Assembly (NCBI GenBank): GCA_965217895.1
Contig: CBDCJV010000002.1
Location: 704,001-768,000 of the forward strand
DNA from: Waterburya sp.
Lineage (GTDB): Bacteria > Cyanobacteriota > Cyanobacteriia > Cyanobacteriales > Xenococcaceae
Direction of reading: 5' to 3'
DNA length: 64,000 nt
The notes under the pieces are model-generated. The model did no database searches and had not been told where the DNA came from. It saw only the letters and a list, made by a program, of their open reading frames with translations. Below are positions 42,877 to 57,821 of the stretch, one piece after another. The translations under genes were made by a program, and so were the position numbers. Position 1 is the stretch's first letter, and the number at the start of each line of letters is the position of its first letter.

Positions 42877-42911
42877 TTTCAGCTAATTAAGCATTTTCAT
42901 TATTAAAATAA

Positions 42912-44075
42912 ATGATGATCGAAAAAATACTAGGAAGAAAAAATCTTAAGGTAAATATTTCTATTGTTGGCGGTTCTAATTCAGTAATGAGGCAAGGCTA
43001 TGCTAAATATTTAGATGCCTATATTAGAAAGGAAACCTCTTTAGAAACATCGCTAAAATATTATTCTTTGGGTGGTGTACCTAACATTTTTGGTACTATT
43101 CAAGAACACAGATACAACATAGGTGTCAACAGTGATATTGTATTTTTTGAATATTGTGTAAACGATCGCCATGCTATTGAGATAGACCAGTATTCTCTGG
43201 AATTGGTTGGAAAAGCATTAGAAGGATTTATTAGAAAAGTAAACAAATCAAATCCTAACTGCTTAATAGTCATTCTGATATTCGGAATTAATCTAGACAA
43301 TTTTTATAATAATCATTGTCATTTATCAGAGCTTTATCAAAAAATAGGCAATCATTACGGTTTGCCAACAATCGATATTACTAAAGTATTAAGCAATACT
43401 TATAGTTTAGAGTACGTTAAAGCTTTATATAATGATAGAGATCATGCCCATTATTCTAGACCCAGAGGAGTACAAATTGTTTCTCAGACTATTGTAAAAG
43501 AGCTAAAAAGGCTCGGAATAATCAATAATCTACAAGCAATTAAAAACAGCATAAACAAACAAAATAAGCAGTTAGAAATATCTCCTATTTATTATGATAA
43601 TTTTGAGGAGTTGGCTTTTCTTGAACGTTTTGAAAATGACAATTGCTTTTCAAAGCCTCCCAAAATATCAGTTTACCAAAACACAGTTTTCAGGGAAAAA
43701 AATTTTACTATTTATCAAGGCAATTCTTTGAAGTTTCTTTTAAAAGGGAAGCTAATGGCAATTTTTATTAAATCCGATCTTAATGATGGTTTTATTACCA
43801 TTGAATTTAATAAACAACGTATTGTTACTAGCTCCTATTCTTCTTGGGTTAATAATATTAAACCTCAAAACGTTATCAATTTAATTGCTTTACCTTTACG
43901 CCGATTTTCAGCATCTGAGGACTTTGCGATCGCATCAATCAGTTTATGTCCAGAATATCCCCATGATTTTGAGTTGGATTTTAATAAAGCTGTTCCAACT
44001 AAAAAAGACCCTAAAAAATGGAAACTAAGCATTATAGGCATTGCCTATATTGGTGAAATAAAACCGTTAAACTAA
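42912..44075 (+). CDS. SGNH/GDSL hydrolase-like protein
   Basis: GGSNS block I, EYCVND block III, DHAH block V. Confidence 0.7.
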   Translation: MMIEKILGRKNLKVNISIVGGSNSVMRQGYAKYLDAYIRKETSLETSLKYYSLGGVPNIFGTIQEHRYNIGVNSDIVFFEYCVNDRHAIEIDQYSLELVGKALEGFIRKVNKSNPNCLIVILIFGINLDNFYNNHCHLSELYQKIGNHYGLPTIDITKVLSNTYSLEYVKALYNDRDHAHYSRPRGVQIVSQTIVKELKRLGIINNLQAIKNSINKQNKQLEISPIYYDNFEELAFLERFENDNCFSKPPKISVYQNTVFREKNFTIYQGNSLKFLLKGKLMAIFIKSDLNDGFITIEFNKQRIVTSSYSSWVNNIKPQNVINLIALPLRRFSASEDFAIASISLCPEYPHDFELDFNKAVPTKKDPKKWKLSIIGIAYIGEIKPLN

Positions 44076-44186
44076 TTAACCTTAGTTCTGGTTAATTTAT
44101 TTAACGGTTAGCGACTAGTAACCATCAACAATCAATTAGAGTATTAAAACTAAACCTCTTGAAAATATGAAAACGCTATAAACAAG

Positions 44187-44396
44187 CTATTTGGATTTAT
44201 AGTTACTATCTAACCAGCATTGAGGAAGATTTTCTCCAGAAGGAAAAACTAGATTTTGCTTGTCAAAAGGTTCTGGAGGCTGTTCATTTTGACCAGCTTG
44301 CATTTGACCTGTTACTTTGTCCTTGAAAGGATCGATTAATTCATCTATTTCAGAAATTTCGACCAATTCATCGTCCTGCTTGTTTTTTAATAACAT
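44187..44396 (-). CDS. Small conserved cyanobacterial protein
   Basis: LIDPF…QAGQNEQ…LVFPSGENLPQCW motif. Confidence 0.75.
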   Translation of the reverse strand: MLLKNKQDDELVEISEIDELIDPFKDKVTGQMQAGQNEQPPEPFDKQNLVFPSGENLPQCWLDSNYKSK

Positions 44397-44589
44397 TAAA
44401 TAGCCCCTTGCTTATGAATGTAAATAAAATATTGTAGGTAGTTGACTTGAAATTTATTACAAGAACAACTGGCAATATTTACACACTCAAAATACTATAA
44501 ACTCGATGCTATTTCCATCTGGCAAAAGGCTTAGATTTTAAGACACACATTATAATCGTATCTCACGGCTATAAAGCTTAAATCAGCAT

Positions 44590-45165
44590 TTAATCAGTTA
44601 AACCGCCAAACACACCCTTGAGGGCAGCGATCGCATCTTCTGCTGCTGCCCAAATACCGTCTTCTGGTTCGTTCCCTGTTAATTGGCGTACGCCATAATA
44701 GTAAATTGCCCCTTTTAATTGTTCTTGATGAGCGCGATTTTTAAAGTTGGCTTTATTGATCGGGTCTACTAGTTTTTGCAAAATACCGTCAGTTGCTTGA
44801 GCTGCTTTATGCACCAATAAACCAGTCATTACTAACTGATGCTTTAGCCCTTCGTGCTGCATAAATTTTTCGTATATGTCCAAATGATTTTCAGACATAA
44901 TACTTTCGATAGTTTGCACCATATTGGTAACGGTATCACTGGGTTGTGAAGTCATTTCCAATTCAGCAATAGCTTCATCAATTGCAGTTAAACTTTTGCG
45001 ATCGTCCTCTAACATATCTGTTAAAGTTTCTGTAACTTTTTTGTTATCAGTGCTTGCCTTTAATAACTTTTCTTCGTTGGAAATCATTAAATTTTGCAGA
45101 GTTTTCATATCTGCTAATTTACGAGCGATCGCATTTTTCTTTGTAGTTTCTAATGTAGCTGCCAT
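44590..45165 (-). CDS. Ferritin/hemerythrin-like helical protein
   Basis: KLADMK…QHEGLKHQ…HKAAQ…NFKNRAHQEQLK; His/Glu-rich four-helix pattern. Confidence 0.65.
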   Translation of the reverse strand: MAATLETTKKNAIARKLADMKTLQNLMISNEEKLLKASTDNKKVTETLTDMLEDDRKSLTAIDEAIAELEMTSQPSDTVTNMVQTIESIMSENHLDIYEKFMQHEGLKHQLVMTGLLVHKAAQATDGILQKLVDPINKANFKNRAHQEQLKGAIYYYGVRQLTGNEPEDGIWAAAEDAIAALKGVFGGLTD

Positions 45166-45518
45166 AAGCTGCTTTTACTCCAATTTCTAATTAATTTCGT
45201 CTAACTGTTATAGTCTGACGTTAATTTTCACGAGAAACATCCTACTTATGATTGATCGATGTTTCCATTTAGCAATTAGAATTAAGTAGACAATGAGGGC
45301 ATTGCTAAATCGGGGTATGATTCACCAACGCCGAAAATATTGTAGGGTCAGAGGTCAGCAAGGTTTATCTTGTTTGCCAACTTAGGATTAAACTTTTCAG
45401 ACTAACTTACAACGATAAATAATTTTATTTTGCTACCTGTTAAAAATGACAGGTGTTTATAGTTTCTGTACTTTAACTATCTTTTATTCCTGTACCTATC
45501 GCTAGTGTCAACTATTCC

Positions 45519-45561
45519 GTAGCAAAATACACAGGCCGATCGAGGACTAAACTTCTAATCT
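45519..45561 (+). promoter_or_regulatory. Candidate NtcA-activated promoter
   Basis: GTA-GCAAAATA-CAC (45519-45532), 23 nt spacer, then TAATCT (TAN3T) at 45556-45561. Confidence 0.55.
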
Positions 45562-45614
45562 GGTCGGTAACTCAGTCGAAAATTAACCGACTGTTGCAGT
45601 CTTGAAGTGAAATA

Positions 45615-46895
45615 ATGAAAAAGCACTACTCCGTAATAGTTGTGGGTGGTGGTCAAGCTGGTCTTTCAATCAGTTATTGTTTGAAGCAAAAAGGCATCGA
45701 CCACATTGTATTTGAAAAGAATCAGATTGGTTATTCTTGGCAACAAAAACGCTGGGATACATTCTGCCTGGTGACACCTAACTGGCAATGTACTCTCCCT
45801 GGTTATCATTATCCAGGTGACGATCCTGACGGTTTTATGGAAAGAGATGCGATCGTTGAATATGTAAAGGATTATGCCAAATTTTTCAACCCACCAATCA
45901 AAGAAGGAGTAGAAGTATTTTCAGTTAAGAAAAATAATTCTCAAGGGTTATTTGAACTAGCGACTTCTATTGACAACTATACGGCGGATCAGGTTGTTGT
46001 CGCCACAGGCAGCTATCATCAGGCGAAAGTGCCGAGAATGGCGGAAAGGTTTACGGGCGATGTAATGCAACTGCATTCTTCTGACTACAAAAACCCTGAG
46101 TTATTGCCAGAAGGAGAAGTATTAGTAATCGGTAGTGGGCAATCTGGTTGTCAGATAGCAGAAGACTTACACTTGGCAGGTAGAAAAACTCATCTTTGCG
46201 TTGGTGGCGCACCGCGATCGCCTCGTAAGTATCGGGGCAAAGATGTTGTAGATTGGTTAGACCGACTGGGATATTACGATCTGAGTATAGATAAACACGC
46301 CGATCCTGAAAGTGTAAGAAACAAAACTAACCATTATCTTACAGGTCGCGATGGTGGTCATGAAATAGACTTAAGACAGTTTGCTAAAGAGGGAATGCAG
46401 CTATATGGTTCACTCAAAGATATTCAGGGCGATCGCTTAGAATTTAAATCCAATCTAAAGCACAACCTGGATCGCGCTGATAATGTAGCCGAAAGTATTA
46501 AAAAGACTATCGATGAATACATCGTCAGAAAAGAAATAGATGCGCCTACCGAAGAGGCTTATAAGCCAGTTTGGCAACCAGAAGAAGTTGCGCAACTTGA
46601 CTATAAAAAAAGCAACATCACTTCTGTAATTTGGTGTATTGGCTATCAAACTAACTTTAACTGGATTAAAGTTCCTGTATTTGACGGGCTAGGCTATCCT
46701 AGCCACGATCGCGGTGTTACAAGTGCCAGGGGCTTATATTTCGTAGGTCTTCCTTGGCTGTATACCTGGGGTTCGGGAAGATTTTCAGGTATAGCCAGAG
46801 ATGCCGAATATCTGTCTGACTACATTGCCAACAGGATGAAATATGCCTATCCAGGTACATTGCTGGCTGTTAATGAAGCTGCGCTCGGCTCTTAA
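45615..46895 (+). CDS. Flavin-dependent oxidoreductase, MSMEG_0569/NitH family (Nit1C cluster)
   Basis: GGGQAG, RWDTFCLVTPNW, HSSDY, GSGQSGCQIAEDL, WGSGRFSG. Confidence 0.88.
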   Translation: MKKHYSVIVVGGGQAGLSISYCLKQKGIDHIVFEKNQIGYSWQQKRWDTFCLVTPNWQCTLPGYHYPGDDPDGFMERDAIVEYVKDYAKFFNPPIKEGVEVFSVKKNNSQGLFELATSIDNYTADQVVVATGSYHQAKVPRMAERFTGDVMQLHSSDYKNPELLPEGEVLVIGSGQSGCQIAEDLHLAGRKTHLCVGGAPRSPRKYRGKDVVDWLDRLGYYDLSIDKHADPESVRNKTNHYLTGRDGGHEIDLRQFAKEGMQLYGSLKDIQGDRLEFKSNLKHNLDRADNVAESIKKTIDEYIVRKEIDAPTEEAYKPVWQPEEVAQLDYKKSNITSVIWCIGYQTNFNWIKVPVFDGLGYPSHDRGVTSARGLYFVGLPWLYTWGSGRFSGIARDAEYLSDYIANRMKYAYPGTLLAVNEAALGS

Positions 46896-47000
46896 CAATG
46901 AACAATGAACAATGAACAATGAACAATTGTAGAACAATTGTAGGGTGGGCATGAAGATAAGTCTTGTATTCAAAAAGCAATTTTAAATTGCCCACCGCTA
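46894..47000. repeat. Heptamer tandem repeat (AACAATG)x4 plus a REP-like inverted repeat
   Basis: aacaatg tandem at 46894-46921; gtagggtgggca…tgcccaccgcta at 46940-47000. Confidence 0.75.
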
Positions 47001-47044
47001 ACGATAAATAATGATTGATAAACTATTTAAAAGGAAAATAAATT

Positions 47045-47527
47045 ATGCCTGAAGTTACTACCCCCGCACACAAAGCTGGTGATTTCTTTGTCGATTACGA
47101 AGAAAAAGTATTTCCCGATATTAAAGCTGAACCAGGAGAAAAAGCATTAGTTACATTTCATACCGTGGCTTTTGAAGGTTCGATTGGTTTAGTAAATTTA
47201 TTACAGGCTACCCGCTTGATTCGCAAAGGTTTTGATACCTCGGTGTTGCTTTATGGTCCTGGGGTAACGTTAGGAATACAGCGAGGCTTTCCGAAGATTG
47301 GCGATGAATCTTTTCCTGGACATCAGGCGATGAACAACCAGCTAATCAAAATTATGGAAGAGGGTGCAAAAGTCTATGCCTGTCGTTTTGCACTGCAAGC
47401 ATTATATGGACATGGTGAACCCTCTCTAATTCCTGGAATTACCCCCATTAACCCTTTAGATGTACTGGATATAGTCTTGATGCACCGCAAAGAAGGCGCA
47501 TTTATCCTTGATACTTGGACAATGTAA
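47045..47527 (+). CDS. MSMEG_0572/Sll0783 family protein (NitB, DsrE-like)
   Basis: [33 protein letters not shown]. Confidence 0.9.
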
Positions 47528-47626
47528 GTCGTAGCTAGTTTAGAACCTATCACTTAGAAGATAACTGTTTGTAAGTAGGAAGTAATAAGTTTAAACCTGC
47601 TGTCAATGTTCGATGGTAAATGATAA

Positions 47627-48655
47627 ATGATGAATGTAAAAGCAGCAGCAGTACAAATATCTCCTGTGCTTTATAGCCAAGAAGGAACTACAGAGAAAGT
47701 TTTAAAAGCGATCACCGATGCTGGCAAAGAAGGGGTGCAGTTAATTGTTTTCCCTGAAACCTTTATTCCCTACTACCCTTATTTCTCTTTTATACAGCCA
47801 CCCGTGTTGATGGGTAAGGAACACATGAGGCTATATGAGGAAGCGGTATCGATTCCTAGTCCTGTTACCGAAGCGGTTAGTAAAGCAGCTAAAGCTAACT
47901 CAATGGTAGTAGTTTTGGGAGTTAACGAACGGGACGGAGGTTCTCTATATAATACTCAGTTAATCTTTGATGCTGATGGTAGTTTATTACTCAAACGCCG
48001 TAAGATAACTCCTACCTACCACGAACGAATGATTTGGGGACAGGGAGACGGATCGGGATTACAGGTATTAGACACGGCTGTCGGTAAAGTGGGTGCTTTA
48101 GCCTGTTGGGAACACTATAATCCTCTAGCTAGATATAGTCTGATGGCACAGCAGGAACAAATACATTGCGCTCAATTTCCTGGTTCGATGGTGGGGCAAA
48201 TCTTTGCCGATCAAACCGAGGTGACGATTAAACATCATGCTTTAGAGGCTGGTTGTTTTGTGGTTAATTCGACTGGCTGGCTAAGTCCCGAACAAGTTGT
48301 TGAAATATGTCCCGATGAGAATCTGCGACGGGTTTTAACTGGTGGCTGCTACACCACTATCATTTCTCCCGAAGGTGTTTGCCTGTGTGAACCCATAACA
48401 GAAGGAGAAGGCATGGCGATCGCCGATTTGGATTTCTCTTTAATTACTAAACGCAAGCGGATGATGGACTCAGTGGGACACTATTCCCGTCCCGATCTAT
48501 TGCAGCTTCAGGTGAATCAAGATGCTCGTAATGTTTGGCAACAAACACCCACAGATTATGCGATCGCCTCAGAAAATGAACTAGCTATTAATGGCAAATT
48601 ACCAACTCCAGAATTACCAAAAATTAACGAACCAAAACCTATAACTAATAATTAA
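47627..48655 (+). CDS. Nit6803-type nitrilase (NitC)
   Basis: Catalytic E (FPETF), K ([11 protein letters not shown]) and C (ACWEHYNPL). Confidence 0.93.
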
Positions 48656-48689
48656 CAATTCTACGCGCCTTAATCGTGCCGCGATCGCC

Positions 48690-49802
48690 ATGACAAATGA
48701 GCAAAAACGCAAATTAATTACAGATCTACAGTCCCAAGGATTAAAACTAGCTGAAAACATTACAGGTGCAGCAGGAAGAAAAGGTGGTGCAGGTCCATCA
48801 GATCACAAAGCTGTAACAATAGACGGCACAACGGTCATGATACCCGTTTACACTAGTGTTGCTGCTAAATCTAACTATACACTTGCAGATTTTCACAAAC
48901 AGTCGCTCAACTATAAGAAATCTTATGTTTTAGAAAAGAATGAAGAGGGTATTGCATCGATCCAATTTCCCAACCAGCCCAAATTTTATAGCCTCAAAAC
49001 TGCCGAAGGGATACCCTACAGTCACATTGCTTTATTGCATAGCCATAACGTCCTTGCCACAACAGTTTTACAAAGCTGCATCCGCTATAGTAACCGCAAT
49101 ACAGCCTGTCAATTTTGCGCCATCGAACAATCTCTAGCAGCAGAAAAAACGATCGCCCAAAAAACTCCCGAACAATTAGCAGAAGTGGCAGCAGCAGCAG
49201 TTGAGCTTGACGGTATAGAACAGTTAGTAATGACTACAGGCACACCCAATACGACAGATCGAGGGGCAGCCTATTTAATTGAATGCGCCAAAGCAGTCAA
49301 AGCGAGAGTCAATTTACCTATTCAGGCACAGTGCGAACCTCCCGATGATTTTATTTGGTTTAAACGAATGAAAGCCTGGGGAATAGATAGTTTGGGAATG
49401 CACCTCGAAGTAATTGAACCAGAAGTGCGCGATCGCATTATGCCAGGCAAAGCCAAAGTATCTCTAGATTATTACTTTCAAGCATTTGAGGCAGCAGCAA
49501 AAGTCTTTGGTTGGGGACAGGTAAGCACTTACATTTTGGCAGGTTTAGGAGACAGCTTAGAAAGCATCACCGATACTTGCGATCGCTTAATAAAGCTAGG
49601 AGTTTATCCCTTTGTTGTTCCCTTTATTCCCGTTACTGGAACACCATTAGCCAACCATCAACCCCCCAGCAGCGAATTTATGTATGCAATCTATGAACAG
49701 GTAGGGGCAATGTTAAATCATGCAGGTATGTCCTCCCAAGATATTAAAGCTGGCTGTGCCAAGTGTGGTGCTTGTTCTGCACTTTCTACCTTTGAACATT
49801 AA
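48690..49802 (+). CDS. MSMEG_0568 family radical SAM protein (NitD)
   Basis: RKGGAGPSDH, C-x8-CQFC, C-terminal CAKCGACS. Confidence 0.9.
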   Translation: MTNEQKRKLITDLQSQGLKLAENITGAAGRKGGAGPSDHKAVTIDGTTVMIPVYTSVAAKSNYTLADFHKQSLNYKKSYVLEKNEEGIASIQFPNQPKFYSLKTAEGIPYSHIALLHSHNVLATTVLQSCIRYSNRNTACQFCAIEQSLAAEKTIAQKTPEQLAEVAAAAVELDGIEQLVMTTGTPNTTDRGAAYLIECAKAVKARVNLPIQAQCEPPDDFIWFKRMKAWGIDSLGMHLEVIEPEVRDRIMPGKAKVSLDYYFQAFEAAAKVFGWGQVSTYILAGLGDSLESITDTCDRLIKLGVYPFVVPFIPVTGTPLANHQPPSSEFMYAIYEQVGAMLNHAGMSSQDIKAGCAKCGACSALSTFEH

Positions 49803-49847
49803 GCGCATTGAACATTGCATCAAATAATTAACAACAACTAACGACGA

Positions 49848-50354
49848 ATGACTAAATACCAATTTAAACTAGCTTTATCACCAGCCCATATAGAAGCTTA
49901 CTTTCTACTAAGACAACAAATTTTCTGTCAAGAACAAGGTATCTTTCAAATGAGCGATCGCGATAACTATGACTCAATCGCTTATCCTATTGTTGCCATC
50001 AATAATGATAACAAGGTTGTCGGAGTTGTCAGGATCTATGAAACCGAACCTGGACTTTGGTACGGTGGCAGACTTGGGGTACATCCAGATTATCGACGAG
50101 GGTGGAAGATTGGCAAAGAATTAATCAATAAAGCGGTAACTACGGCTAATGCTTGGGGCTGCGATCGCTTTTTAGCCACAGTTCAATTAACTAACGTGCG
50201 CTTTTTTCAAAGATTACACTGGAACTCAGTTGAAGAAATTTCTATTTGCGATCAACCCCATCATCTAATGGAAGCTGAACTAGCTTTTTATCCCCCCACG
50301 AATCAAACTCGTCCTAGTTTACCAATGCAGCTACAGCAATTATCCGTTAGCTGA
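49848..50354 (+). CDS. MSMEG_0567 N-terminal/Sll0786-like GNAT acetyltransferase (NitE)
   Basis: LRQQIFCQEQ, WYGGRLGV, FLATVQ, FFQRLHW. Confidence 0.88.
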   Translation: MTKYQFKLALSPAHIEAYFLLRQQIFCQEQGIFQMSDRDNYDSIAYPIVAINNDNKVVGVVRIYETEPGLWYGGRLGVHPDYRRGWKIGKELINKAVTTANAWGCDRFLATVQLTNVRFFQRLHWNSVEEISICDQPHHLMEAELAFYPPTNQTRPSLPMQLQQLSVS

Positions 50355-50377
50355 CATTAACTCCTTATCAAATTCAG

Positions 50378-50689
50378 CTAACTAATAAAAATTTCAATTG
50401 AACTCAAAAGGTTTGGAAGCTTATTTTGAACTACATCCCAAACGACATCAAGATCAATTTGATCGTATTTATGTACAATTATTTCTCGCCACCTAATTTC
50501 TGGATGACTTTGACGAAACGACTCAGATAATCTTTTAGTTGCCTCGCCAATAATTGTAATTTGATAAAGGATTGCCGAAATTTTTTCATCGTTAGCTTCT
50601 AGCTCTAAAAAGCTGATGCCATCTGAGTAATGTAAAATACGTTTAATAGCATTAACTATATTAATCAGAGATTCTTTGTCACGCAGCAT
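50378..50689 (-). pseudogene. HepT/DUF86 HEPN toxin with a deletion in the RNase motif
   Basis: IIGEATKRLS…HPEIRWREI-IVHKYD…DVVW; the usual AGMR(D/N) segment before the His is missing. Confidence 0.7.
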
Positions 50690-50993
50690 AAATAACTCGT
50701 GCAGAGTCTATAATATTGTCTTTTCTAAGCCAATTATCGCTGCGCTCGATCGCTGCTTTAACAATCAAGTCCACCTTTCTATCAAAAATAGCCTCAAGCT
50801 CATCTTGCATTTGTATAGTTTCAGTTAGCCCTCTTTTTGTGTTGGCATCGAAGCTTACCAATACGTCAATATCGCTGGAGACATTGAAATCGTCACGCAA
50901 AACAGAGCCAAATAGAGCAAATTCAATAATCTGCCATTAATGGCAAAATTTTTTGATTTTATCTAAAGGTATGTCGATATTTTGAAACTCCAT
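50679..50993 (-). pseudogene. MNT nucleotidyltransferase antitoxin with an in-frame TAA
   Basis: MEFQNIDIPLDKIKKFCH*WQIIEFALFGSVLRDDFNVSSDIDVLV; stop at 50937-50939. Confidence 0.8.
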
Positions 50994-51065
50994 AGACAAC
51001 CAAATTCTTAAACCTCAGCTTAGTATTATAGGCGATCAAAAGACCGCTTAAGAGCCGATTGTATC

Positions 51066-51230
51066 TAGGGCGTGTCATCAATTAAAAAAAAGAGCTTTTT
51101 TTGGTATTTTAACGACCTACTGCGTCGAAAAATAACCTCCGTAGCCCTGCTATGCAGAACATTTTTCTTCTTGTATCTCGCTAAAATACGCTGCAAAAGC
51201 ATTCTTCCCCTCAATTGATGACACGCCCTA
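51066..51230. mobile_element. MITE with perfect 18-bp terminal inverted repeats
   Basis: tagggcgtgtcatcaatt … aattgatgacacgcccta; no coding capacity. Confidence 0.85.
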
Positions 51231-51577
51231 AGCAAATAATATAAATTATGTCGCGAACAAAACCAAAAATTGAGGAATTTATAAGTAGATACTTTAAATG
51301 AGGAAGAAATTTTAGTAACATTACTATCTTTGCAGAGCCAAACAGCAAAAAACTATAATCTAACTAACCCTAACGCCACCAAAGTGATTTTTTCAGCTTT
51401 AACTTAAAAATAGCGATCGCGAAGAGAAATTCATAACTTATGATGTAAGTTGGCAGGCTTATAAGTCATCAGTCAATACTTGCATTGTTTAGTATTTTTA
51501 TAATTTGGCAATCAGCAATTAGGCGTAGATAGTTTAAAAAATCGCTTAATCGCTCTTTTTTGCTGTAATTACCAAAT

Positions 51578-51605
51578 GTAATGTAGATTACGTAAAAATA
51601 ACTAC
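51578..51605 (+). promoter_or_regulatory. Two back-to-back NtcA consensus boxes upstream of cynS
   Basis: GTA-ATGTAGAT-TAC (51578-51591) and GTA-AAAATAAC-TAC (51592-51605). Confidence 0.65.
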
Positions 51606-51655
51606 AAACTTAAAATTTAAAAAACGCTTTAATGACTTAACAGCAAAATGTCAGC

Positions 51656-51750
51656 ATGGCGATTGCAAGACAGCGCGGTCTTGAGGTTTCCTCAAGTGGA
51701 GCGACTGTCGAGGGTGGGTAAGCTGGCTAAACGCCAGCACCCTTCGCCAT
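51656..51750. repeat. Nested palindromic short dispersed repeat in the cynS leader
   Basis: atggcga…tcgccat enclosing cttgagg/cctcaag, agggtg/caccct and gctggc/gccagc; shares actgtcgaggg with the 14.4-kb mosaic. Confidence 0.65.
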
Positions 51751-51919
51751 CAATTACAGATATGGTAATTTCCTCAAGCACAAAAGCTATAGATAAGTGA
51801 GGTAATGTGTTAGCTCCCAACGAGGAAATCTGAGTGAATTAGATTTGATTTATATGATGTGTGGTGTGTTCACATGACTACGGATCGCTGGAAATTTATG
51901 GCGGAGGAGGAATTAAATT

Positions 51920-52366
51920 ATGAAAGTATTTCCCGAAATCACTGAAAAATTATTAGCAGCTAAAAAAGAAAAAGGAATTACCTTTGAGGATCTAGAAAAG
52001 GCAGTCGGACGAGATGAAACTTGGATCGCTTCGGTTATCTATCGTCAAGCCAGTGCAGATATGGACGAAGCTACAAAAATAGTTACCACTTTAGGTTTAC
52101 CAGAATCAATGGCTGAACCTCTTACAGTTGCACCCCTAAAGGGTTCTCTTGAGCCTCAAATACCTACCGACCCATTAATTTATCGTTTTTACGAAATTAT
52201 GCAGGTATACGGAATGCCAATCAAAGCCGTAGTCCATGAAAAATTTGGGGATGGCATCATGAGTGCAATTGATTTTTCAGTTGAAGTAGAGAAAGTAGAA
52301 GATCCAAAAGGCGATCGCGTACAGATAGTAATGTGTGGTAAATTTTTACCTTATAAGAAATGGTAG
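51920..52366 (+). CDS. cynS: Cyanase (cyanate lyase)
   Basis: [39 protein letters not shown]. Confidence 0.95.
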
Positions 52367-52370
52367 ATTT

Positions 52371-52673
52371 ATGTATCTAACACCAAAAGAAATGGAGCGG
52401 TTAACGATATTTACCGCTGCCGAAATTGCCCGTCGTCGCAAAGCCAAAGGGATTAAATTAAATGTCCCCGAAGCGATCGCCTATATTACCGATGCGCTGG
52501 TAGAAGGGGCGAGGGAAGATAAAACTGTAGCTCAATTAATGAGCGAGGGTGCAGAATTACTGACAATGGATGATGTCTTACCAGGAGTAACAGAATTGAT
52601 TCCCTTAATTCAAGTAGAGGCACATTTTCTTGATGGCACGAAGTTAATTAGTGTTCATAATCCGATTAGATAG
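52371..52673 (+). CDS. ureA: Urease gamma subunit (divergent)
   Basis: MYLTPKE…LNVPEA…EGARE…[22 protein letters not shown] 4 nt after the cynS stop. Confidence 0.9.
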
Positions 52674-52731
52674 CCCTAGTTCTAGTAGTAAGTAAGATAA
52701 GGGCGAACGGTCGTTCGCCTGTACAAAAATT

Positions 52732-53097
52732 ATGATTCCAGGTGAAATATTTTTTGCAGAGGATGAGATTGAAATTAATGCAGGTAGAGAGAAGAAAACG
52801 ATCGCGGTAGATAATACAGGCGATCGTCCGATTCAAGTCGGTTCTCATTTTCACTTTTTTGAAGTCAATCGAGCATTAGCATTTGATCGCCCTGCTGCGT
52901 TTGGTTTTCGTTTGGATATTCCTTCTGGAACGGCAGTACGTTTTGAACCTGGAGATACTAAAGAAATTATTTTAGTTGCCCTTGGAGGAAACAGGCGAGT
53001 TATCGGACTTAATAATTTAACCAACGGTGCATTAGATAATTCAGAAATTGAAGCTGTTGCGATCGCTAATGCCCAACAATTAGGTTTTTATCAATAA
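52732..53097 (+). CDS. ureB: Urease beta subunit
   Basis: [40 protein letters not shown]. Confidence 0.93.
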
Positions 53098-53099
53098 CT

Positions 53100-53127
53100 G
53101 TAGGGGCGATTTGCGAATCGCCCCTAC
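53100..53127. repeat. GTAG-type REP-like palindrome
   Basis: gtaggggcgatt-tgcg-aatcgcccctac; related palindrome at 52700-52720. Confidence 0.75.
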
Positions 53128-53150
53128 GACTACTAACAATTAACCACAAC

Positions 53151-54857
53151 ATGAGAATCAACCGCGAACGATATGGAGAATTATTTGGTGCGACCAAAGG
53201 CGATCGCCTGCGTCTGGGAGATACTTCAATAATTATTGAAATTGAAGCGGATACAGGAGTTTACGGGGATGAATGTGTTTTTGGTGGCGGAAAAACGCTA
53301 CGGGATGGTTTGGGTTTAGCACCAGGAGTTACGGCATCTCAAGGCGCATTAGATTTGGTTTTAACCAATGTTATCGTCATGGATGCGGTGTTGGGCATTA
53401 TTAAAACCGATCTGGGCATCAAAGATGGCAAAATAGTGGGTATTGGTAAGGCTGGTAATCCAGATATTATGGACGGGGTAACACCCAATCTAATTGTTAG
53501 TGCCAATACAGATGTACGCTCGGCTGAAGGCTTGATTGCTACGGCTGGTGGAATTGATGGTCACGTTCATTTTGATAGTGCTGGGTTGTGCGCTGAAGCT
53601 CTTTCTAGCGGTATTACTACCATGATTGGTGGTGGTTTAGGCCCTGTTACCGTGGGGATTTGTTCGGGTGGGGCGCGGAATTTAGGAATTATGCTGCAAG
53701 CCACAGAAAGCTTTCCGATTAATTTTGGTTTCCTGGGTAAAGGTAGCTCTAGTTTACCTGCCAGTTTAATAGAACAGATCGAAGGTGGGGCAATCGGCTT
53801 AAAGATTCACGAAGATTGGGGGGCGATGCCTGCTGCCATTGATACTTGTCTGAGGGTGGCAGATGAATACGATTTTCAAGTACAGCTACACAGCGATACT
53901 CTTAACGAATCGGGATATGTGGAAGATACCTTAGATGCGATCGCAGGTCGTACCATTCATATGTACCATACGGAAGGGGCTGGGGGCGGTCATGCACCAG
54001 ATATTATTAAAGTGGCTTCTTATCCTCACTGTTTGCCCTCTTCTACCAACCCGACTAATCCCTATACGATAAATACTTTTGACGAGCATTTAGATATGGT
54101 GATGGTCTGTCATCATCTCAATCCTAGAGTACCCGAAGATATTGCTTTTGCCGACTCGCGTATTCGAGCCGAAACCATTGCTGCTGAAGATATTTTGCAC
54201 GATATGGGAGCAATTTCCATGATGGGTTCGGATAGTCAGGGAATGGGGCGCATTGCCGAAACAATCTGTCGTACATGGCAACTGGCTTCTAAAATGAAAG
54301 ACCAGCGAGGAGTATTACCAGGAGATAGCGATCGCCATGATAATCAAAGAGCTTTACGCTATTTAGCTAAATATACAATTAACCCCGCCCGCACCTACGG
54401 CATAGATCGCTATGTAGGTTCATTAGAACCAGGAAAAATTGCCGATATAGTGCTGTGGCAACCTGGATTCTTTGGTATTAAGCCCGAATTGATTATAAAA
54501 GGTGGTTTTATTACTTGGTCGCCCATGGGAGAGTCGAATGCTTCTTTAATGACCTGCGAACCAATTATTTATCGACCACAGTGGAGTAGTTTTGGTATTG
54601 CACCTCAAGCTACTTCCTTTAGTTTTATGACCCAAGCAGCCATAGATAAAGGCATCCCTAATAAATTAGGTTTGCAAAAACCAGCTTTAGCTGTAACAGG
54701 TACTCGTTCTTTATCTAAGTCTGACCTAATACACAATAATATTTGTCCTCAGATTAAAGTCGATCCTGATACATTTCAGGTCAAAGTTGACGGCGAACTA
54801 GCAATCTGCGAACCAGTCGATCGCGTTCCTTTGGGAAGATTATATATGTTTCGTTAA
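53151..54857 (+). CDS. ureC: Urease alpha subunit-like amidohydrolase (divergent)
   Basis: [38 protein letters not shown] and SDSQ metal/catalytic motifs are present; several normally invariant loops differ. Confidence 0.9.
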
Positions 54858-54966
54858 TCGTGTCTGGTGTTGAAATTCGTAAGAATCGCTACTCCTATAG
54901 TTAAAACTTCATGATAATGTTAAGTCCAATTATTGTTAAAGAATGCAGTAGGGCAAAATATTTCTT

Positions 54967-55797
54967 ATGGAACGTACATTTGTTGGTACTCTCAAAACCT
55001 TATGGCGTTATCCAGTTAAATCGATGCAGGGGGAAGAATTAGACAAGTCAGATATCGACATAAAAGGATTATTGGGCGATCGCACTCATGCCCTTTGGGA
55101 CGTAGAAACTAAGCGCGTTGCCAGTGCCAAAAATCCGCGAAAATGGTCGTCTTTACTTAACTGTCATGCCACCTTTGAGCAAACACCCCAGGTAGATAAA
55201 CTTATACCTACCGTACATATTTCTCTCCCTGATGGTTCTACTATTACCAGCAAGCAAGCTGATATTAATACCCAGCTATCTAACTGGATTAAGCGAGAAG
55301 TAAAGTTTCTGACTACTGCCCCTGAAACACCCAGTCTCGACCAATACTGGCCAGATGTCGAAGGCACAGCCTATCAAGATACGGTGACTCAGTTGTTTAT
55401 GCCGACTGAAACTTTTTTCGATTCCTGCCCGATTCACGCGATTACTACTGCTACTCTTAATCGTCTACAACAACTTTATCCAGATGGAGAATTTGCTATC
55501 TGTCGCTTTCGCCCTAACTTACTGATTGATACCTTATCAACTCAAGCTGATTTTGTCGAAAATGATTGGGTTGGTCATATTCTAGCGATCGGCGATTCTG
55601 TTAGGCTTAAGATTGATACAGCCTGTCCTCGATGTGTCGTAACCACTTTGGCACAAGAGGGATTGCCTCAAGATTTAAATATTTTGAAAACTACTGCTAA
55701 GTATAACGATGTTATTGCAGGAATAAGATTGTCAGTCATTCAAGGAGGCACTATTCATCAAGGAGATTCTATCTGGTTGTTAGAAATTAAAGTTTAG
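54967..55797 (+). CDS. MOSC-domain (mARC/YcbX-like) molybdoprotein
   Basis: WRYPVKSMQGE, GDR, RFRPN, CPRCVVT (Moco Cys); no C-terminal 2Fe-2S domain. Confidence 0.9.
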   Translation: MERTFVGTLKTLWRYPVKSMQGEELDKSDIDIKGLLGDRTHALWDVETKRVASAKNPRKWSSLLNCHATFEQTPQVDKLIPTVHISLPDGSTITSKQADINTQLSNWIKREVKFLTTAPETPSLDQYWPDVEGTAYQDTVTQLFMPTETFFDSCPIHAITTATLNRLQQLYPDGEFAICRFRPNLLIDTLSTQADFVENDWVGHILAIGDSVRLKIDTACPRCVVTTLAQEGLPQDLNILKTTAKYNDVIAGIRLSVIQGGTIHQGDSIWLLEIKV

Positions 55798-55860
55798 GAT
55801 AGTTGTTCAACTGATTGACTATCATGGCTTTTAGAGTTGGCTAACTTATGGCAGTAATTT

Positions 55861-56931
55861 TTAAACTCTTTTAACCTGCTCTCTTTCTACCGCTTCAAAC
55901 AAGGCTTTAAAATTGCCTTGACCAAAACCTTTTGCTTCTTGTCTACGTTCAATAAATTCAAGAAAAAAAGTTGGCTGCTCAAAAATGGGCTGAGTAAAAA
56001 TCTGCATCAGTAAAGATTCTACAACAGGCTGATATTCTAACTCCCCTCGATCGCCATCGACTAAAATTTGCAGATCGGCGATCGCTTGCCACTCTTGAAT
56101 GCTTAACCGTGATTTATGCTTTAGCAGACGGTAATAGGACTGGGGTACGGTTAAAAAATTAAGATGAGGCTGCATCAAAGCCACGTCGGCAATCAAGTTT
56201 TGCGATCGCAATGCTAGATGTTGAATACCCGATCCACCATTAAGATTGATAAATTCTTGAATTTGAGAATTGGCTGTCGTTGGTTGATTAATATTAAACT
56301 GCACTTCACCGCTATCATTGATTAAAGCCTGACTGGTTAATCCTGATTTTTCGGTGTGAATATTAAAACTCTGCTGTATTTTAAATCCAAATAAAGACTG
56401 ATATAACTTGACAGCAGAGTCTAATTTACCCACAGCAACATTGAGAACAACGTGATCGATATGAGTAATATTTGTCTGGAAATCAGCCTTGAGCGAATAT
56501 GGCTCAATATCTATATCTGGTAAGCAATAATCAAATTTATCTGAAGTCCCTTCAATTAAAGTATGTTGGAGAGAATTCCAGCCAGTAATTTTGGCAGCTT
56601 TAAATTTCCCTGGTAACGATCGGTAAGTTTGAGGATGCTGTAATATTTTTACTCCTAAATACTTACCCTGACTAATAACTGATTTAATATCATCTATTCT
56701 AAAGGCAATATCCACTATCCCCGAAGGATGAAGCTCAAGATACTTGGCAACTGGACTAGTATTGCTTAAGGGCGAAGAAATTACCAAAAAAGCCGAATTT
56801 AAGGCAATTACCTCAGTCTGGGTGTGTTTATTAATACTTCTGCCGATCGCTTGAAAGCCGACATTGTGGATAAACCAGTCTCTTGTTCTTGCTGCATTCC
56901 TGGTATAGAAATGAACATGATCGATCTTCAT
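55861..56931 (-). CDS. hppD: 4-hydroxyphenylpyruvate dioxygenase
   Basis: IDHVV, SQIQEF, GIQHLAL, QIFT, FLEFIER, GFGQGNFKALFEAVEREQ; start corrected to MKIDH at 56931. Confidence 0.92.
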   Translation of the reverse strand: MKIDHVHFYTRNAARTRDWFIHNVGFQAIGRSINKHTQTEVIALNSAFLVISSPLSNTSPVAKYLELHPSGIVDIAFRIDDIKSVISQGKYLGVKILQHPQTYRSLPGKFKAAKITGWNSLQHTLIEGTSDKFDYCLPDIDIEPYSLKADFQTNITHIDHVVLNVAVGKLDSAVKLYQSLFGFKIQQSFNIHTEKSGLTSQALINDSGEVQFNINQPTTANSQIQEFINLNGGSGIQHLALRSQNLIADVALMQPHLNFLTVPQSYYRLLKHKSRLSIQEWQAIADLQILVDGDRGELEYQPVVESLLMQIFTQPIFEQPTFFLEFIERRQEAKGFGQGNFKALFEAVEREQVKRV

Positions 56932-56963
56932 AAAGTTATTACTGTCGTAACTGTTGAGCCTAT

Positions 56964-57821
56964 CTATTTCGTAGCACAAATCAACCCAAAACGAATCAAT
57001 CCCCTGGCATAGCCGCGACTCATCAGATTTAAAGATAATGCTCCTTGGATTGTTTGCCAACCTGCTTGGAATAAACCCATGATTGCCTGGGGTGTAATAG
57101 CTGAGTCGATTACTACATCCCAGAAAGGCGACACCGCCATCGACCAATCATCTGATTTAAGCTCATTAAAACCACATTCAGTTGCGATCGCCCGATACTC
57201 GGACAAAGAGATCACATAAGGTAGGCAATATACGCGATAAATTTCTTTGAGATGAGCAATTTCATTAACAGTTAAATTCCCAGCTAAAGAATCAGTTTCT
57301 CGATGACACCAGGTAGCTAAAATTATTTTTCCGCCTGGCTTTAAGACGCGATAACATTCTGCCAAGAATTTGGTTTTATCGGGCATATGTTCCCCGCTTT
57401 CTAATGACCACACCAAATCAAAAGTATTGTCCTCAAAAGGCATCTCTAAAGCGTTCGCTACTTCAAACCTAACGCGATCGTCTAAATCTGCTTCTACTGC
57501 CCTTTCCCTGGCTCTAAATGCTTGCACAGGAGATAAAGTAATGCCTGTAGCCTTACTGCCAAACTTTTGGGCTAAATATAAGGTACTGCCACCAATACCG
57601 CAGCCGACATCAATTATTTTCTTGGGCGCATTATTTTCAGCATAACCAGCCCAAATTAACAATTCTTCAATTAATTCTATTTGCGCCTGACGGCGATCTA
57701 ATCTGTAGTTACCATTCTTGCCATAGTAACCGTGGTGCATATGTTCACCCCAAACTTCCTCCCATATTCCGCTAGAGGCATCATAAAACTCTCTGATATT
57801 TTGATATAAGTTGTTACTCAT
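56964..57821 (-). CDS. vte4: Gamma-tocopherol methyltransferase-like SAM methyltransferase
   Basis: FYDASSGIWEEVWGEHMHHGYY, DVGCGIGGS, WSLESGEHMPDK, ATWCHR. Confidence 0.85.
   Translation of the reverse strand: MSNNLYQNIREFYDASSGIWEEVWGEHMHHGYYGKNGNYRLDRRQAQIELIEELLIWAGYAENNAPKKIIDVGCGIGGSTLYLAQKFGSKATGITLSPVQAFRARERAVEADLDDRVRFEVANALEMPFEDNTFDLVWSLESGEHMPDKTKFLAECYRVLKPGGKIILATWCHRETDSLAGNLTVNEIAHLKEIYRVYCLPYVISLSEYRAIATECGFNELKSDDWSMAVSPFWDVVIDSAITPQAIMGLFQAGWQTIQGALSLNLMSRGYARGLIRFGLICATK

Follow-up and report, generated by a model that had tools for sequence, protein, structure and literature searches.

The cynS-ureABC-MOSC operon

A five-gene operon is found in Waterburya sp. (NCBI GenBank assembly GCA_965217895.1) within a stretch of 64,000 nucleotides (contig CBDCJV010000002.1, positions 704,001 to 768,000 of the forward strand), hereafter the window. 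The operon encodes a cyanase, the three subunits of a urease and a protein with a MOSC domain, all on the forward strand. On its sequence, the catalytic subunit UreC2 is a second, intact urease of a widespread lineage, here termed ure2, the active-site pocket of which departs from that of canonical ureases.

The first gene, cynS (51920..52366), encodes a full-length member of the cyanase family (NF002773; TIGR00673 score 210.9, cut-off 113.3) and is the sole tblastn match in the genome. The ATG of ureA2, the gene for the urease gamma subunit (52371..52673; TIGR00193), lies 4 nucleotides past the cynS stop. It is followed by ureB2 for the beta subunit (52732..53097; TIGR00192), by ureC2 (53151..54857; TIGR01792 score 843, cut-off 680) and by the gene of a stand-alone, mARC-like protein of 276 amino acids with the Pfam domains MOSC_N and MOSC (54967..55797). 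The remaining gaps are 58, 53 and 109 nucleotides. The first four genes each scored above their NCBIfam cut-offs in a family profile search. Coordinates and family matches thus bear out the first-pass annotation, which had described five co-oriented, tightly packed genes with a cynS-ureA gap of 4 nucleotides. GC-rich short palindromes, probably dispersed repeats, occupy the ureA-ureB and ureB-ureC gaps (52702-52719 and 53100-53127). The host genome (G000; 99.9% complete) contains one cynS and two ureABC sets, and UreA2, UreB2 and UreC2 are 59%, 59% and 56% identical to the canonical copies of the host.

All five genes are genuine and unbroken, and purifying selection acts on them. The ratio of nonsynonymous to synonymous substitution rates (dN/dS) is 0.015-0.037 for cynS, the frame of which is intact, and 0.11-0.15 for the MOSC gene. 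For ureC2 it is 0.035-0.050 (five pairs of orthologues within the genus) against 0.063 for canonical ureC (one pair), and the gene is therefore taken to be maintained. Some decay is seen around it, as the upstream transporter has decayed, two relatives (G010 and G025) have broken or incomplete ure2 copies, and a ure2 sequence was found in 12 of the 39 genus genomes (the host and 11 others) and in none of the other 27. A decaying, non-functional remnant is nevertheless hardly credible, given the intact frames and a dN/dS that is not above that of the single canonical pair.

Active site of UreC2 and the ure2 lineage

Relatives of UreC2 were examined as the best 80 of at least 577 related genomic stretches, and are 66-83% identical to it. 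These loci belong to cyanobacteria, Actinomycetota, Pseudomonadota and one archaeon. Compared with the urease of Klebsiella aerogenes (1ejw), the metal ligands H138, H140, K218, H247, H273 and D361 are all kept, and they are invariant in 28 of 28 aligned sequences. K218 aligns with the position of the carbamylated lysine of nickel urease. The flap residues C320 and H321 are also kept, as are H220 and R337 (C319, H320, H219 and R336 in K. aerogenes).

The pocket around these residues is altered. A167 of K. aerogenes is replaced by V168, with a deletion of three residues in the loop just before it, and A363 is replaced by G364. Further changes are T159 to Leu, I138-C139 to Asp-Ser, and the C-terminal segment ASIPTPQP to ASLMTCEP. 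All 81 ure2 sequences (the query and the 80 best loci) carry one block of changes, made up of V168, G364, the three-residue loop deletion and the Asp-Ser pair that follows the second His. The 14 canonical-type rows, among them the host's own canonical UreC, all lack it. According to Mazzei et al., the urea nitrogen on Ni(2) is bound by the carbonyls of Ala170 and Ala366, and the C-beta of Ala366 touches the water at the site of that nitrogen (PMC7433671). UreC2 does not have these two alanines of nickel urease (Ala167 and Ala363; 170 and 366 in S. pasteurii), while the backbone carbonyls remain. Loss of the methyl group equivalent to that of Ala366 could make room for a substituent. The AlphaFold model of UreC2 has the urease fold, with a template modelling (TM) score of 0.87.

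In a quick, unrooted UreC tree of 45 rows, the 14 canonical-type rows occupy one side of a branch from which the query is excluded, with a support of 100 in the Shimodaira-Hasegawa-like approximate likelihood ratio test (SH-aLRT); the tree being unrooted, this split does not make ure2 one clade. UreC2 does not group there with the canonical UreC of its host and order. The first-pass annotation had named three findings that would tell against it, namely a sole ureC, a place in the canonical clade with normal urea kinetics, and an unconserved MOSC/cynS linkage. A second ureC was found instead, the query lies outside the canonical group with an altered pocket, and MOSC co-occurs with ure2 in cyanobacteria.

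Another urease accompanies ure2 in 34 of the 50 non-cyanobacterial carriers searched. Three urease-like genes are found in some genomes, and in a Gaiellales genome the ure2 cluster is immediately preceded by another urease-like gene set, which is shorter (L018:3294-5514). There are also other urease-like branches in which the metal ligands are kept, the flap Cys or His is replaced and the pocket is altered (L201, L206, L207, L208, L210, L211 and L213). These would be stronger candidates for a non-urea substrate than ure2.

Accessory genes and proposed activation in trans

Whole-genome searches gave no UreD, UreE, UreF or UreG match inside the window. One match each for UreD, UreE and UreF, and one UreG over cut-off, all lie at C2:4.64 Mb. 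This is the canonical cluster of the host, in the order ureA-B-G-D-E-F-C (G000:C2:4639581-4644950; L001:7576-12953), with accessory genes of the ure2 type. The second canonical ureC with ureDEFG that the first-pass annotation had proposed to look for is therefore present in the host. The absence of accessory genes, which it had also remarked on, holds locally for the window and fails as a property of the enzyme, as at least one of ureD, ureE, ureF and ureG is nearby in 77 of the 80 best loci and a matching set lies elsewhere in the host genome. All four are found in 53 of the 80, and in 36 of the 47 full-length loci among them. No accessory genes were found beside ure2 in the 11 other carriers of the genus.

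This last observation, together with the window itself, would fit an accessory-independent, possibly iron-containing urease like UreA2B2 of Helicobacter mustelae, for which there is a precedent (PMC6737895). Such an enzyme is very improbable here. The best loci do not form a lineage devoid of a dedicated accessory set, the set of the host is of the ure2 type, and the H. mustelae chain 3qga is no nearer to UreC2 than the nickel ureases are.

The UreG, UreD and UreF of the host are 75-83%, 38-52% and 48-56% identical to ure2-linked cyanobacterial proteins, compared with 55-60%, 24-32% (two rows) and 23-28% to canonical ones. Exactly one UreG match is found in 35 of the 39 genus genomes (loci L136-L165 among these), at 81-100% identity to that of the host, and this includes genomes without ure2. 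In order genomes outside the genus, UreG is 54-60% identical to that of the host in 36 of 39. The ure2-linked UreG copy of G037 is 73% identical to it. A quick UreG tree was built from 11 sampled genus sequences, 10 cyanobacterial ure2-linked sequences and 28 canonical rows. The 11 genus sequences sit with the 10 ure2-linked ones (SH-aLRT of 98), apart from the canonical rows.

The single accessory set of the host thus appears to be of ure2 origin, with the canonical UreG apparently replaced throughout the genus; the genus-wide displacement was examined for UreG, and UreD, UreE and UreF in the host. The simplest history is that an ancestor of the genus gained a whole ure2 cassette, the G-D-E-F block of which displaced the canonical one. 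The ureABC2 genes would then have survived in about one third of the genus genomes as an accessory-less island that is activated in trans. Whatever the substrate, a genus in which a ure2-derived UreG, and in the host also UreD, UreE and UreF, serves a canonical urease offers a natural test of the matching between maturation proteins and ureases. In five loci (L034, L038, L040, L049 and L085), HypB/HypA-like genes and a tandem pair resembling metformin/dimethylguanidine hydrolase lie directly 5' of the ure2 cluster.

Upstream region and history of the operon

Two adjoining GTA-N8-TAC sites (51578..51605, forward strand) were found by a motif scan 5' of cynS, and we take them to be putative nitrogen-control boxes of the NtcA type. 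The motif is weak taken alone, the window containing 15 matches where 10.2 would be expected. The second site is retained 5' of the same operon in G017, G020, G023, G035 and G019. Between this promoter and the first gene remnant, genome comparison reveals a short dispersed-repeat insertion of about 99 nucleotides (51651..51749). It is missing from G017, G020 and G023, and has weak copies in the genome (73-86% identical).

The insertion is followed by the decayed 5' end of a gene for an ATP-binding cassette (ABC) binding protein of the NrtA/CmpA/CynA family (51762..~51905, forward strand), interrupted by stops and frameshifts. The remnant is 74.5% identical over 153 nucleotides (E 2e-26) to the start of the gene in locus L088, and the transporter has therefore been deleted rather than originally lacking. 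The first-pass annotation had noted that the window contains neither a urea transporter nor cynABD. This stands in so far as no intact one was seen (family search of 42900-57800 and whole-genome BLAST of related binding proteins), and needs amending for the decayed start.

An intact order of binding protein, permease, ATPase and cynS is found in G035, G019, G016, G152 and G104, the binding protein before cynS in relatives being of the NrtA/CmpA family. In G035 and G019 this order continues into ureABC2 and MOSC, ureA and ureB being separated by two additional genes in G035. The same transporter precedes cynS in G016 and G152, with no ure2 in the stretch examined, and G023 has a deletion of the transporter region unlike that of the window. 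The operon would accordingly have started as an ABC transporter with cynS, then gained ureABC2 and MOSC, and lost the transporter later.

Some relatives show further features at this locus. The N-terminus of the CynA-like binding protein (L088:812-2464) bears an unusual extension containing a Cys-x-x-Cys...His motif, which is kept in G016, G152, G104 and G019. A molybdopterin oxidoreductase of 711 amino acids with narM lies between ureA2 and ureB2 in G035 (L088:5447-8110) and directly 5' of MOSC in G010 (L115:5403-9847); the host keeps a fragment only.

The cynS linkage is patchy. The gene lies 5' of ureA2 in 5 of the 11 other carriers of the genus, and beside ure2 in none of the 80 best loci, by which cynS as a general ure2 partner was ruled out. 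Other ure2 neighbours within the genus are a formamidase with an amide-type transporter (G028, G029 and G021) and nitrile hydratase genes (G003 and G010). It follows that cynS contributed a promoter and a related function rather than a required step.

Other candidate signals in this region were set aside. For a riboswitch or structured leader 5' of cynS, the Rfam match was only antisense within ureC and the folding z was -0.16. A conserved stretch 5' of cynS, considered as a structured leader, turned out to be the decayed coding start. A scan for sigma-70 promoters and terminators gave no excess relative to shuffles.

The MOSC protein and its co-occurrence with ure2

The MOSC protein has a conserved D152 and C223, the latter aligned with the molybdenum-binding cysteine in the CSRC motif of human mARC1. 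It combines MOSC_N and MOSC with the molybdenum-ligating Cys, as mARC- and YcbX-like proteins do, and moaA is over cut-off in the host. No fused ferredoxin or other extra domain was found in its 276 residues beyond the two Pfam domains, a fused ferredoxin being typical of YcbX (PMC10637980). The nearest named homologues are records from Pleurocapsa, Xenococcus, Phormidesmis and Chamaesiphon.

The first-pass annotation had suggested a search for co-occurrence of this UreC clade with MOSC, and within cyanobacteria the association holds. In the genus, MOSC is present in 10 of the 11 genomes whose ure2 includes the pocket region and in G025, which has a 3' ureC2 fragment only (11 of 12 in all), and in 0 of the 27 others. 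It lies within the examined ure2 locus in 7 of the 11 other carriers of the genus. Outside the genus, 8 of the 10 carriers of cyanobacterial type (L007-L016) have a MOSC homologue at an E value of at most 1e-70, six of them at 59% identity or more, with MOSC adjoining ure2 in just one. A draw of 400 genomes of the phylum gave five with MOSC without ure2 and two with ure2 without MOSC. Taken together outside the genus, MOSC is found in 8 of 12 ure2 carriers and 5 of 398 non-carriers. The co-occurrence suggests a specific substrate to try on a group of molybdoenzymes that has been little studied.

MOSC also occurs apart from ure2, after a Urt-like transporter (G437, with a formamidase, and G071) and in a probable methylamine cluster (G053). 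MOSC may thus track the amide-scavenging module as a whole.

Possible substrates of ure2

The genomic context of ure2 is amide scavenging. In the 80 best loci, its neighbours include a Urt-like binding protein (35), the aliphatic amidase amiE (20), an AmiR-like regulator (14, labelled by reading of the sequence, with no family match), an AAA ATPase (13) and ureohydrolases (8). The host has amiE, fmdA and a Urt-like transporter elsewhere in its genome. One ure2-linked binding protein was aligned and is overall nearer to UrtA, yet carries the AmiC-type GCY and SDYIYP in place of the GGW and SDYVFP of urea binders. A MetX-like hydrolase (PRK07581) follows amiE in the host and is found near ure2 in G037 and in 3 of the 80 best loci (L119:7680-9859; L095:13495-14505). 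It is considered a further member of the amide-scavenging module.

Substituted ureas form when cyanate reacts with hydroxylamine or with amines. Human mARC1 has been reported to reduce hydroxyurea to urea (PMC11513889), and the MOSC proteins assayed to date are described as N-reductases, with hydroxylamines and hydroxamic acids among mARC substrates (PMC10637980). Canonical urease is inhibited by hydroxyurea and also accepts it as a substrate (PMC10051795), and the compound is found naturally in animals (PMC4658187). On the strength of these reports and of the cyanate chemistry, the explanation ranked first, with confidence a little short of even, is a nitrogen-starvation operon in which an ordinary nickel urease has a reshaped pocket, widened to small N-substituted ureas, hydroxyurea first, and MOSC handles the N-O bond. 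A substituted urea, as proposed in the first-pass annotation, is still a plausible though unproven substrate of UreABC2.

In this mechanism, the operon would be under NtcA-type control during nitrogen starvation. UreABC2 would be an active di-nickel urease that receives its nickel in trans from the only UreDEFG set of the genome. Its chemistry would be that of a normal urease, and besides urea it would most probably take small N-substituted ureas. Among these, N-hydroxyurea is the leading candidate in cyanobacteria, and MOSC would reduce it to urea for the urease to split. Alternatively, the urease may free hydroxylamine from N-hydroxyurea, with MOSC reducing the hydroxylamine. The cyanase would remove cyanate in parallel, as a further one-carbon source of nitrogen. 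The substrate and the metabolic coupling are what we infer from the observed gene content, conservation, pocket changes, accessory-set origin and co-occurrence.

Several points weigh against this explanation. The changed pocket residues work via backbone carbonyls, which Val and Gly retain, and the pocket loops of the UreC2 model are unreliable, with a predicted local distance difference test (pLDDT) score below 50 at 162-171 and 361-365. Hydroxyurea is without a demonstrated source in the habitat. No assay of any ure2-lineage enzyme was found in the literature searched (mostly open papers, supplements excluded). In 16 of the 50 non-cyanobacterial carriers, many of them incomplete, no other urease match was found. 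Of the same 50, searched from a total of 70, only 6 have a MOSC homologue at 1e-30, and MOSC is adjacent to ure2 in 2 of the 80 best loci. MOSC is missing from the ure2 carriers G017, G037, G104 and two of L007-L016, and two of the five genomes with MOSC and no ure2 have it behind an amide-type transporter, so that MOSC may follow the amide module rather than the urease. In the co-occurrence counts, kin are not independent and the thresholds were chosen by the analyst. Lastly, ure2 lies directly after a pair resembling dimethylguanidine/metformin hydrolase in 5 of the 80 best loci (E 1e-180, one searched). The first-pass annotation had tentatively linked cyanase, urease and MOSC in one three-enzyme pathway; as a fixed pathway this is contradicted by the cynS counts and by the 6 of 50.

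It has been described by Sinn et al. that dimethylguanidine hydrolysis yields urea, and that the genes cluster with urease (PMC11399263). As ure2 follows a pair of this urea-releasing type in those 5 loci and is the sole urease match in 16 of 50 carriers, it probably still splits urea. UreABC2 may then be a urea isozyme with another affinity, pH optimum, inhibitor tolerance or regulation, with cynS and MOSC as independent scavengers behind one nitrogen-controlled promoter. This is a serious possibility, though held with less confidence than the substituted-urea explanation. The catalytic residues and flap are all kept, and the neighbours within the genus vary between cynS, formamidase and nitrile hydratase. 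Urea carboxylase over cut-off was found in none of the 5 searched of the 16 ure2-only genomes, a weak point as two have split partial matches. Less easily explained by an isozyme are the pocket block, invariant from cyanobacteria to the archaeon, the retention of ure2 alongside another urease in most non-cyanobacterial carriers and in the host, and the tight co-occurrence with MOSC in cyanobacteria.

The amide context, with amiE and amiR-like neighbours, would also suit N-methylurea, carbamate or a short amide as the substrate, the methylamine released being passed to gamma-glutamylmethylamide synthetase. A TIGR03105 ligase, presumably a methylamine ligase, is encoded directly 5' of ureA2 in G037, 4 of the 80 best loci have related genes in the vicinity of ure2 (with the filter used), and many carriers bear the names of methylotroph genera. 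This explanation is improbable. The dimethylguanidine-hydrolase-like pair is present in 3 of those 4 loci and accounts for the methylamine genes without a new urease substrate, and the window has no ligase of the TIGR03105 type.

A stronger form of the favoured substituted-urea explanation, in which ure2 is a distinct, widespread nickel amidohydrolase that prefers a monosubstituted urea to urea and forms with MOSC, in cyanobacteria, a dedicated route of N-hydroxyurea breakdown by N-O reduction and amidohydrolysis, the cyanase clearing adduct-forming cyanate, is unlikely. If true, it would provide a second natural reaction for the urease family and a nutritional substrate for a bacterial mARC-type enzyme. 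The ure2 genes are annotated as plain urease across phyla; if they accept a different range of substrates, urea use is overestimated from ureC counts and a route for substituted ureas goes unseen.

Neighbouring genes in the window

A Nit1C-type nitrilase cluster lies 1.5 kb 5' of the operon (45615..50354, forward strand). Its five genes encode a flavin oxidoreductase, an Sll0783-like protein, an Nit6803 nitrilase, a radical S-adenosylmethionine (SAM) protein and a GNAT protein (TIGR04046, 04044, 04048, 04043 and 04045, all over cut-off). It was rejected as part of the module, with no nitrilase match in 13 ure2 loci and only an MSMEG_0570-family gene by the ureC2 fragment in G025. Between Nit1C and cynS lies a gene for a HepT-like ribonuclease (RNase) with an apparent nucleotidyltransferase partner upstream on the minus strand (50378-~50900). 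The two would form a toxin-antitoxin pair, the partner having been seen in translation only.

Comparison with known systems

UreABC2 shares the three-subunit layout, fold, ligands and flap of the canonical nickel ureases (K. aerogenes 1ejw/2kau, S. pasteurii and jack bean; EC 3.5.1.5). It differs in the pocket block and the ASLMTCEP segment, UreC2 being about 55% identical to them. The mARC1/YcbX-type N-reductases (6fw2) share with the window protein the MOSC_N and MOSC domains, the molybdenum-binding Cys and a nearby Asp. The window protein is distant from them (E 5e-7), with no fused ferredoxin detected, and its N-reductase role is a predicted one.

In cyanate operons of the cynABD-cynS kind, a binding protein of the NrtA/CmpA family, a permease and an ATPase precede cynS, likewise in relatives of the host. 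The host differs in that the transporter is deleted and, in this genus, cynS is followed by ure2 and MOSC. No description of a cynS-urease-MOSC operon was found in the literature searched (mostly open papers).

Second ureases have been described before. A study from 2008 reported ureEF(AB)CGD clusters in Bradyrhizobium BTAi1 and P. syringae B728a, and an accessory-less ure(AB)C of Streptomyces (PMC2492869). The order ureE-F-(AB)-C-G-D recurs in non-cyanobacterial ure2 loci, two of them from P. syringae, so far as gene order is compared. Like UreABC2, the published enzymes are second ureases. The window differs in having separate ureA and ureB and accessory genes in trans. That study covers tree position and gene order rather than pocket or activity. 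Veaudor et al. (2019) described cyanobacteria in which ureABC is duplicated, in some cases together with urtABCDE or ureDEFG, and left the properties of the duplicates open; the words 'cynS', 'cyanase' and 'paralog' do not occur in the main text (PMC6737895). To these duplications the present locus adds the co-occurrence with MOSC in cyanobacteria, a deleted transporter and a genus-wide UreG of the ure2 type.

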